A DNA stretch of 55,109 nt from Chlamydiia bacterium (GTDB lineage: Bacteria > Chlamydiota > Chlamydiia > Chlamydiales > RGXB01): positions 1 through 55,109 of the forward strand of contig JBEIFH010000008.1 of NCBI GenBank assembly GCA_040382515.1, given 5' to 3'. The first letter of the stretch is position 1; every line of letters starts with the position of its first letter. Of this stretch, positions 45,548-46,927 are shown in pieces. A program made the translations under genes and the position numbers. The notes beneath the pieces were generated by a model, which was not told the origin of the DNA, did not search any database, and saw nothing but the letters and a program-made list of their open reading frames with translations.

Positions 45548-46927
45548 TTATTCGATCTCGACCAAATCAAAGGAGATGCCATACGTATCCCTAAATGTGG
45601 AATAACAGCTGGAGAAAGCCTCCAGGTCAAACATACGATCAGGTAAAGCGTGCACATGAAATCCGAAGCTTCGGTATATGGCTCTCTCCAGCCATTCATT
45701 TTCAGCCGCAGTTCCGCGGATATCACGGTGATTATGAGACAAAAGATACATCAAAGGAGCCATTCTCATTTTGAGATCTTGTAATCCATAAGTTTTATTC
45801 CATTGCATCACGTGTTGGAACAACCTGTTGCACTCCGCAAGGGTATCCGTTTGTAGAAAAATATCTTGGTGGAGGATCACCCAATGAGAATGCAGGTGGG
45901 CTCTTTGTAAGGTCCTATCGACCGATTCACCGGGGATGTGGTTAAGCCAAGTAACATATTGGGAGATAGCATACATCTTCTCACCAATTTTATGTCTCAT
46001 CGTAAAAAAAAGAAAATGGGTTTTGTCTGTTGTACTAGAATCGTAACCATCTTGTGGTTCACTGAAATTTATTTTCAATTCAGTGATACCGATAGCAAGC
46101 TTAATCCCGCCATAACTCATCCCGGGGACTGTTGGGACGTGCTTTTTGAAATCTTTCCAGCCTTGAACAAGCACTTGTCGGTCTTTTTCTTTCTCCTCCC
46201 TCATTATTGCAGCCCATATTGCGTCGGGTGAACAGCTTTTTGATGCCTCTACTGCACCCGAAAGACGCCTTTCCAGCTCCGCTTTTAGGTGGGGTCTACT
46301 TCTTTCTACAAACATCTCATAGGTCCCTTCGCCACCTCTACAAAAACCGCAATAGATCAAAGGATTTACTACCTTATCGGCGGCTGATGTTCCAAGCCCA
46401 AGCTCCCAATGGATTTTATCGTATCCCTTTTTTTTGACCGTCTCGACGTCCATAAACTCAAGATTGAAACTGGATACAGGAGTATCTTTCCTATTGATTG
46501 TCAGCGGTTCATCAAATGGGTTTTTGCTAGCACGCACAGCTTCCTTGAATATAGAAAAAACAGTATCACTCAGTCTCTCACCGGCAGCTTTATATTGTCC
46601 CCCTAAAACCAGAAGCGGAAAACGAAAAGGGGTAACCTCTTCCTCCTCTCGCCTGACACCAAAATTTTCTGCTTGAGGCGATTTTGTTCTGAATGCAACC
46701 TCAGAGCGGCGTCTACTCAAGAGTCCCAAAAGCTCATGGAAATCGACCCTCACTCCGTCGGCCTGGATCATTTCAGCTACAGTCTTGATCGCATCCTCAG
46801 CAGCCACCAAGTATTGTTGATGATCACCGTAGCAGCTTTCTTTGACAAAAGGGTCGAAATATTGGGGATCATAGGCACAAGAGGGGCTAAACCGGCCGGT
46901 CCCGGGGTGGGGCGTTAAAAAGGTCAT
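45548..46927 (-). CDS. AvrB/AvrC-like Fido-fold protein, candidate effector
   Basis: C-terminal YLLSHNHRDIRGTAAENEWLERAI...FDLEAF....F...Y pattern resembles the AvrB family RGSAA..E...R and DLEA motifs. Confidence 0.65.
   Translation of the reverse strand: MTFLTPHPGTGRFSPSCAYDPQYFDPFVKESCYGDHQQYLVAAEDAIKTVAEMIQADGVRVDFHELLGLLSRRRSEVAFRTKSPQAENFGVRREEEEVTPFRFPLLVLGGQYKAAGERLSDTVFSIFKEAVRASKNPFDEPLTINRKDTPVSSFNLEFMDVETVKKKGYDKIHWELGLGTSAADKVVNPLIYCGFCRGGEGTYEMFVERSRPHLKAELERRLSGAVEASKSCSPDAIWAAIMREEKEKDRQVLVQGWKDFKKHVPTVPGMSYGGIKLAIGITELKINFSEPQDGYDSSTTDKTHFLFFTMRHKIGEKMYAISQYVTWLNHIPGESVDRTLQRAHLHSHWVILHQDIFLQTDTLAECNRLFQHVMQWNKTYGLQDLKMRMAPLMYLLSHNHRDIRGTAAENEWLERAIYRSFGFHVHALPDRMFDLEAFSSCYSTFRDTYGISFDLVEIE

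Follow-up and report, generated by a model that had tools for sequence, protein, structure and literature searches.

AvrB and AvrC, both from Pseudomonas syringae, are the only characterised members of GT138 in the literature consulted (10.64898/2026.08.26.747443). Among the literature matches listed, titles and abstract openings contain no report of AvrB relatives in chlamydiae, a mention in a table being possible, and the passages of PMC4454073 considered do not mention chlamydiae. The window analysed here, a stretch of 55,109 nucleotides from a Chlamydiia bacterium (contig JBEIFH010000008.1), carries a gene whose product, P0001, was read in a preliminary description as an AvrB/AvrC-type Fido protein and candidate glycosyltransferase. 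The locus raises three questions: does P0001 belong to the AvrB family, which chemistry would its active site support, and whose proteins would it modify?

P0001 as a divergent AvrB-type Fido protein

The reading frame, the RGTAA and DLEAF motifs, H398 and the terminal F..TY...F all lie where the preliminary description had placed them (Table 1). The absence of a canonical Fic motif is likewise confirmed: no HPFxDGNGR-type motif occurs in P0001 or anywhere in the six-frame translation of the genome. As a control for chance, RG[ST]AA..E was sought in the same six-frame translation (1.04 million residues), where its four occurrences all lie within AvrB-like genes. One detail needs correction, as the DLEA tail had been attributed to AvrB itself, which reads DIEA; DLEA is present in some AvrB relatives.

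Table 1. Features of the P0001 locus and of a putative donor-sugar gene pair in the window.
Feature	Position	Strand	Remarks
P0001, AvrB/GT138-type Fido gene	45548..46927	(-)	open frame, ATG start, 459 aa
DLEAF, residues 434-438	45614-45628	(-)	D434 = AvrB D297 (rhamnose O3 contact)
RGTAA, residues 404-408	45704-45718	(-)	sequence
Active-site loop H398-A408	45704..45736	(-)	R404 = R266, G405 = G267, A407 = A269, A408 = A270 of AvrB, by alignment
H353 (= AvrB H217)	45869..45871	(-)	profile-profile alignment; His in 135/145 relatives
Middle lobe, residues 126-300	46028..46552	(-)	far longer than in AvrB; least conserved part
N-terminal pocket: R74 (= R99), F89 (= F113), R93 (= R117), L106 (= T125, changed), Y112 (= Y131)	46592..46708	(-)	profile alignments
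Sigma70-like promoter match	46957..46985	(-)	10/12; 30 bases upstream of the P0001 ATG
Strong hairpin 3' of rpoC	47038..47066	(-)	-20.8 kcal/mol, z -5.2, 0/200 shuffles equally stable
Sulfatase/LTA-synthase-like gene, 879 aa, membrane	42754-45393	(+)	between the P0001 gene and tal
NDP-glucose 4,6-dehydratase-like gene	26241..27344	(+)	possible first step of donor supply; link to P0001 inferred
Plant-type 3,5-epimerase/4-reductase (NRS/ER)	27360..28301	(+)	PDB 4qqr, E 2.7e-112; possible second donor step, link inferred

The HMMER-type comparison with AvrB_AvrC proposed earlier gives a divided answer. P0001 alone has no PF05394 (AvrB/AvrC) match in Pfam (curated cut-off 23.2 bits), reaches NF041403 (XopAH/AvrB) at E 5.8e-5 and 23 bits against a curated cut-off of 220 bits, and finds nothing significant in the PDB as a single sequence. 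A profile of 29 family sequences, however, matches AvrB in the PDB with an E of 4.5e-7, and a profile-profile comparison of the family with five annotated XopAH/AvrB proteins yields a probability of 97.8%. PF05394 is found at E<=0.01 in 19 of the 29 aligned relatives, and the family link of P0001 runs through relatives that do pass the PF05394 cut-off. In the ESM Atlas, the top three clusters score 0.94-0.95, with PF05394 in 26-28% of their members. Two further matches, HMG_box_2 (Pfam, E 4.5e-4, below cut-off and present in one of 29 members) and NF042914, were dismissed as chance.

The fold agrees with this assignment. An AlphaFold2 model built from 133 sequences (pLDDT 92.7, pTM 0.91) is AvrB-like over its whole length, and the six PDB matches that Foldseek gives at E<=0.001 all belong to AvrB. 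AvrB (PDB 1nh1, 2nud, 2nun, 8two, 8twj, 8txf) is the founding member of GT138. VIA-align superposes residues 16-454 of the model on AvrB 40-317 (Z 18.8-19.6, 245-254 residues aligned, rmsd 3.7-4.2, identity 16-17%); its runner-up is a Fic protein at Z 12.3. The same structural ranking was obtained with an earlier model from 29 sequences, and a viral fold library gave no match at E<=0.001. Based on profiles and model, AvrB fold and family are nearly certain, and the AvrB/AvrC-type assignment in the preliminary description is upheld.

P0001 shares the Fido core with Fic/Doc AMPylases and AnkX (BepC 4wgj, VbhT, FICD, AnkX; Z 9-12), including a His at the register of the catalytic His. Unlike these, it lacks HPFx[D/E]GN[G/K]R, of which only the His and Gly positions match, has Arg at the D/E position, and has no antitoxin-like partner in view beside it. 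Judged by sequence and model, P0001 is an AvrB/GT138-type Fido enzyme and not a Fic AMPylase. It has the same C-terminal signature as the AvrC/XopAH family (PF05394, NF041403). Because it stays below the cut-offs of both profiles, has lost T125 and lacks Gly2, we file it as a divergent variant of the AvrB family rather than a strict member.

Retained and altered active-site positions

AvrB numbering was taken from PDB alignments and checked against the residues named in papers. AvrB contacts UDP through G46, N62, R99, R266 and G267 and rhamnose through Y131, A269, D297 and T125, with D297 reaching O3 and T125 reaching O4, in a reaction that is independent of metal (PMC10866546). Y65 and F113 lie at the nucleotide, while T125 and H217 lie at the acceptor Thr, to which H217 hydrogen-bonds (PMC1839166). 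R117 is also named, and R266 is in register with the Fic D/E position (PMC2686095).

P0001 keeps R266, G267, A269, A270, D297 and H217 of AvrB, for which R404, G405, A407, A408, D434 and H353 are direct counterparts in the alignment. Y65, R99, F113, R117 and Y131 also appear to be kept, on an N-terminal mapping that is weaker than that of the C-terminal half: R74, F89, R93 and Y112 are placed by a global profile alignment together with a weak local match (probability 5.6%, E 0.0069). Read without gaps from the start of the structural alignment (model residue 19 on AvrB 45), Y39 would correspond to Y65, whereas N62 and G46 would probably be changed to His (H36) and Asp (D20), the register of the last two being taken from the range ends. 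Conservation among 145 relatives is high for R74 (142), F89 (136), R93 (135), Y112 (139), H353 (135), R404 (142) and G405 (143), and 119 of the 145 retain all seven of these core residues. The earlier glycosyltransferase reading follows from this retained catalytic set, at the level of prediction. We expect that the diphosphate and sugar O2/O3 pocket is kept, the O4/acceptor side changed and the target-binding lobe different. As in AvrB, R404, G405 and R74 would quite probably hold the diphosphate, Y39 the nucleoside, D434, A407 and Y112 the sugar, and H353 the acceptor hydroxyl, with no metal taking part.

On the changed side, the T125 position is L106 in P0001, while Thr occupies it in 122 of the 145 relatives. 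T125 was conserved in all AvrB homologues known at the time, and its Ala mutant does not bind RIN4 (PMC1839166). The loop residue P263 is replaced by R401 (Pro in 123/145), and M262 by H400, which stands at the register of the Fic catalytic His (His in 6/145). The D297 position holds Asp in only 82 of the relatives, Asn in 38 and Cys in 13, so that sugar specificity probably varies within the family. Leu106 and Arg401 mark one 17-row clade (SH-aLRT 99 in a quick tree) that is spread over several chlamydial groups. Their covariation (Arg in 12 of 16 Leu rows) was rejected as independent evidence because it reflects essentially one clade.

AvrB and AvrC, the two family members tested so far, both act as rhamnosyltransferases (PMC10866546; 10.64898/2026.08.26.747443). 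Because P0001 retains the O2/O3 contacts but has Leu in place of T125 and Arg in place of the loop Pro, its donor may be UDP-L-rhamnose, with chances a little short of even, or another UDP-sugar that differs around C4-C6; the His at the Fic catalytic position adds to the uncertainty over rhamnose. The same changes could also signal that the Leu/Arg subclade has shifted to another Fido chemistry, i.e., transfer of an NMP, phosphate or phospho-head-group in which H400 would serve as general base in the manner of Fic. The chemistry of Fido enzymes is diverse (PMC10866546), and the loss of T125 together with the register of H400 would suit such a shift. Nonetheless, P0001 has R404, T406 and A408 where Fic proteins have D/E, N and the final R, as in AvrB, the fold is AvrB-like over Fic-like by 7 Z units, the sugar contacts D434 and Y112 are retained, and very few relatives share the His. 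A shift of this kind is quite improbable. Another outcome of losing the T125 hydroxyl, which in AvrB touches the acceptor Thr as well as sugar O4 (PMC10866546, PMC1839166), would be a protein that can bind or hydrolyse a nucleotide sugar, or bind to a host protein, but does not transfer efficiently. We regard this as scarcely probable, as H353, R404 and D434 are retained in nearly all rows of the Leu/Arg clade, which fits changed specificity better than decay.

The largest departure from AvrB (321 aa) is the much longer middle lobe of P0001. This region has no local match to the AvrB-family profile and is ordered in the model; its identity to the orthologue in genome G049 is 37%, compared to 50-55% in the flanks. 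It is likely the target-binding lobe. The best ESM Atlas score for residues 125-300 (0.80) is a lead only.

Genomic context and evolution

The preliminary description placed the gene directly between tal and rpoC, yet the sulfatase/LTA-synthase-like gene separates it from tal. On visual inspection the long C-terminal part of this neighbour resembles an LRR region, for which Pfam gives no hit, and the gene is syntenic across the genus at 42-89% identity. The promoter upstream of P0001 is a consensus match only, from a scan that found six sites where 3.8 were expected. The hairpin behind rpoC is likely a terminator that separates P0001 from rpoBC, as judged from its sequence. Together, promoter match and hairpin suggest that P0001 is probably its own transcription unit. 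One metatranscriptome contains three short contigs, which cover only 46124-46276 of the gene.

The gene was also presented as an inserted, plant-pathogen-type effector, a view that the genomic data do not support. Its position between rpoC and the sulfatase-like gene is the same in all three other genomes of the genus, its G+C content (0.452) is close to that of the contig (44%), and its GC3 of 0.442 falls within the 0.41-0.51 of its neighbours. Synteny and ordinary G+C and GC3 led us to reject a recent horizontal insertion; a tblastn search against plasmids and phages gave no match for P0001. Orthologues within the genus are 46-88% identical, compared to 96-99% for rpoC. The gene is under purifying selection, with a dN/dS of 0.11 between G049 and G291 and 0.40 between G000 and G070 (the latter pair giving 0.03 for rpoC and 0.07 for tal).

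AvrB-like genes are widespread in the phylum. A four-sequence profile detects relatives in 63 of 401 Chlamydiota genomes, PF05394 in 74 (58 over cut-off) and in none of 14 control genomes, and the two combined in 91 of 401. The 30 genomes of family f4, which we take to be Chlamydiaceae (members listed at 1.0-1.2 Mb), yielded no AvrB-like gene. In a library clustered at 50% identity, 358 clusters match at E<=1e-30, rising to 1241 at E<=0.001 (taxa not given), and a scan for the subclade motif across 185,579 species genomes returned nine loci, all titled as chlamydiae. The ESM Atlas look-alike clusters also list records from Pseudomonadota, Actinomycetota and Streptophyta, which extends the wider family beyond chlamydiae. 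The second of these hits is a 54-member AvrB_AvrC-like cluster that is 52% eukaryotic, most commonly Streptophyta, and may represent plant homologues or contamination.

In a quick tree of 70 rows without bootstrap (25 atypical and 35 random rows of the 145 long-form proteins, five short and five plant-pathogen proteins), the 60 long-form rows group together (100), apart from the plant-pathogen branch. The five plant-pathogen proteins form one branch (98) beside the short chlamydial paralogues, i.e., these AvrC/XopAH members are closer to the short paralogues than to the long form of P0001. The chlamydial radiation to which P0001 belongs is thus distinct from the plant-pathogen proteins in this tree, which likewise speaks against the plant-pathogen-type label; as the tree has only a midpoint root, no direction of transfer between the two is claimed. 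Three short AvrB-like genes that pass the PF05394 cut-off lie in tandem next to dnaK elsewhere in the same genome (L031 5460-8095, contig C4 of G000); two have hydrophobic N-termini, and an in-frame stop interrupts the first. The three other genomes of the genus carry a corresponding trio.

Possible host direction and export

From retained residues and model, we lean slightly towards P0001 being a host-directed protein O-glycosyltransferase that uses a UDP-sugar. The acceptor would be a Ser or Thr residue, most likely in a host protein that P0001 would reach by predicted type III delivery; an SctV/HrcV-type gene of type III export is over cut-off in the genome. Eight metagenomic runs from five studies cover at least half of the window; setting aside the possible source study, their labels read aquatic, lake water or simply metagenome. 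Going by this lake habitat, the host of the carrier does not seem to be a land plant, and RIN4 is not an expected target. It is reasonably likely that P0001 has its site of action outside the bacterial cytoplasm and modifies a protein of a protist or algal host, which would dock in beta-strand form on the enlarged upper lobe.

Unlike Pseudomonas AvrB, P0001 has neither a Gly2 myristoylation site (it starts with MT, and an MG start occurs in two of 145 relatives) nor a long disordered or myristoylation-type N-terminal tail, and no signal peptide or hydrophobic leader was found there; only about ten residues at the N-terminus are of low confidence in the model. A median of nine residues precedes the first conserved Tyr in 144 relatives, with at most ten in 83 of them. 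A domain scan of 27 relatives, most of them picked for length, revealed zf-MYND in three (one genome), ankyrin repeats in one, DUF4116 in two, a methyltransferase in one and DUF648 below cut-off in one. Locus L081 (781-7475) consists of three tandem long-form AvrB-like genes, each with an N-terminal zf-MYND finger. An ankyrin-AvrB fusion (L075 675-3002), two doubled AvrB-like proteins (L030 850-3111 and L082 875-3283) and an AvrB-methyltransferase fusion (P0055) were also observed. Across eight AvrB-like loci inspected, no neighbour is shared, and some copies stand in tandem arrays.

Several of these features would also suit an enzyme that glycosylates proteins of the bacterium itself (surface proteins, secreted proteins or P0001) and is not host-directed. 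The gene keeps a fixed position beside rpoC with its own promoter-like site in the genus, the N-termini of most relatives are very short, and AvrC modifies itself (10.64898/2026.08.26.747443). Signal-peptide-like N-termini in the short paralogues, in a few long relatives and in the rhamnose gene pair described below would point to the periplasm or the inclusion lumen. P0001, however, has no signal peptide, and its dN/dS exceeds the values for tal and rpoC by a factor of 5-13. Across the family, fusions to MYND or ankyrin domains, a patchy distribution and expansion in tandem fit host-directed proteins. The supply of donor sugar bears on this alternative as well. Most environmental chlamydiae encode RmlC (PF00908; 279 of 400 genomes of the phylum), yet it was detected in none of the four genomes of this genus (G000, G049, G070 and G291; 92-97% complete). 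With the rhamnose pair looking exported too, a cytoplasmic rhamnose donor is not apparent. On balance, modification of the bacterium's own proteins is unlikely.

Possible supply of the donor sugar

A possible source of donor for P0001 is the dehydratase-like and NRS/ER pair (Table 1), which lies 17 kb from the P0001 gene and has signal-peptide-like N-termini. Of 400 chlamydial genomes, 15 carry the NRS/ER-like gene, among them all four of the genus. An initial hydrophobic stretch scoring >=2.26 is present at 13 of the 15 loci, the other two being unresolved by ORF calling; these N-termini were judged by a hydropathy score, not by a signal-peptide predictor. The gene often stands among other genes with hydrophobic leaders. 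Convergent on the pair is a gene for a 355-aa protein (28419-29486, (-)) with a hydrophobic N-terminus and no Pfam or NCBIfam hit.

The eukaryotic UDP-rhamnose route starts from UDP-glucose (PMC9741107, PMC3220709), and C. trachomatis, whose inclusion takes up UDP-glucose from the host, offers a precedent (PMC4829429). The only PF00483 gene found in the genome is GlgC-like by reading of its sequence, and two weak PF01704 genes are present, so the bacterium may make UDP-glucose of its own. It is conceivable, if doubtful, that the genus runs a self-supplied rhamnosylation outside its own cytoplasm: the dTDP-rhamnose route would have been dropped and the plant-type pair exported, host UDP-glucose would be converted to UDP-rhamnose within the inclusion or the host, where as many as four AvrB-type enzymes would transfer the sugar to proteins. 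The data do not support an obligate association of the plant-type epimerase/reductase with AvrB-like genes. Outside this genus and family f4, an AvrB-like hit is found in 5 of 11 carriers of the epimerase/reductase compared to 82 of 356 non-carriers (Fisher p 0.14; kin are not independent). As the association across the phylum is not significant, self-supply stays a minority reading. Elsewhere, the AvrB-like gene at L069 lies 4 kb from an rmlC-like gene, which looks incidental, as other genes intervene.

Implications

If the genus does supply its own rhamnose in this way, AvrB-type chemistry would no longer need a rhamnose-making host, environmental chlamydiae rather than plant pathogens would be the main reservoir of GT138, and the Leu/Arg subclade would represent a new donor or acceptor specificity. 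More generally, the radiation described here, which counts no fewer than 358 clusters at 50% identity and E<=1e-30, with its systematic changes in the sugar and acceptor pocket, offers a natural panel for new protein O-glycosylation chemistry on the Fido fold. It suggests that intracellular symbionts of protists may glycosylate proteins of their hosts, and it bears on the origin of the plant-pathogen effector.
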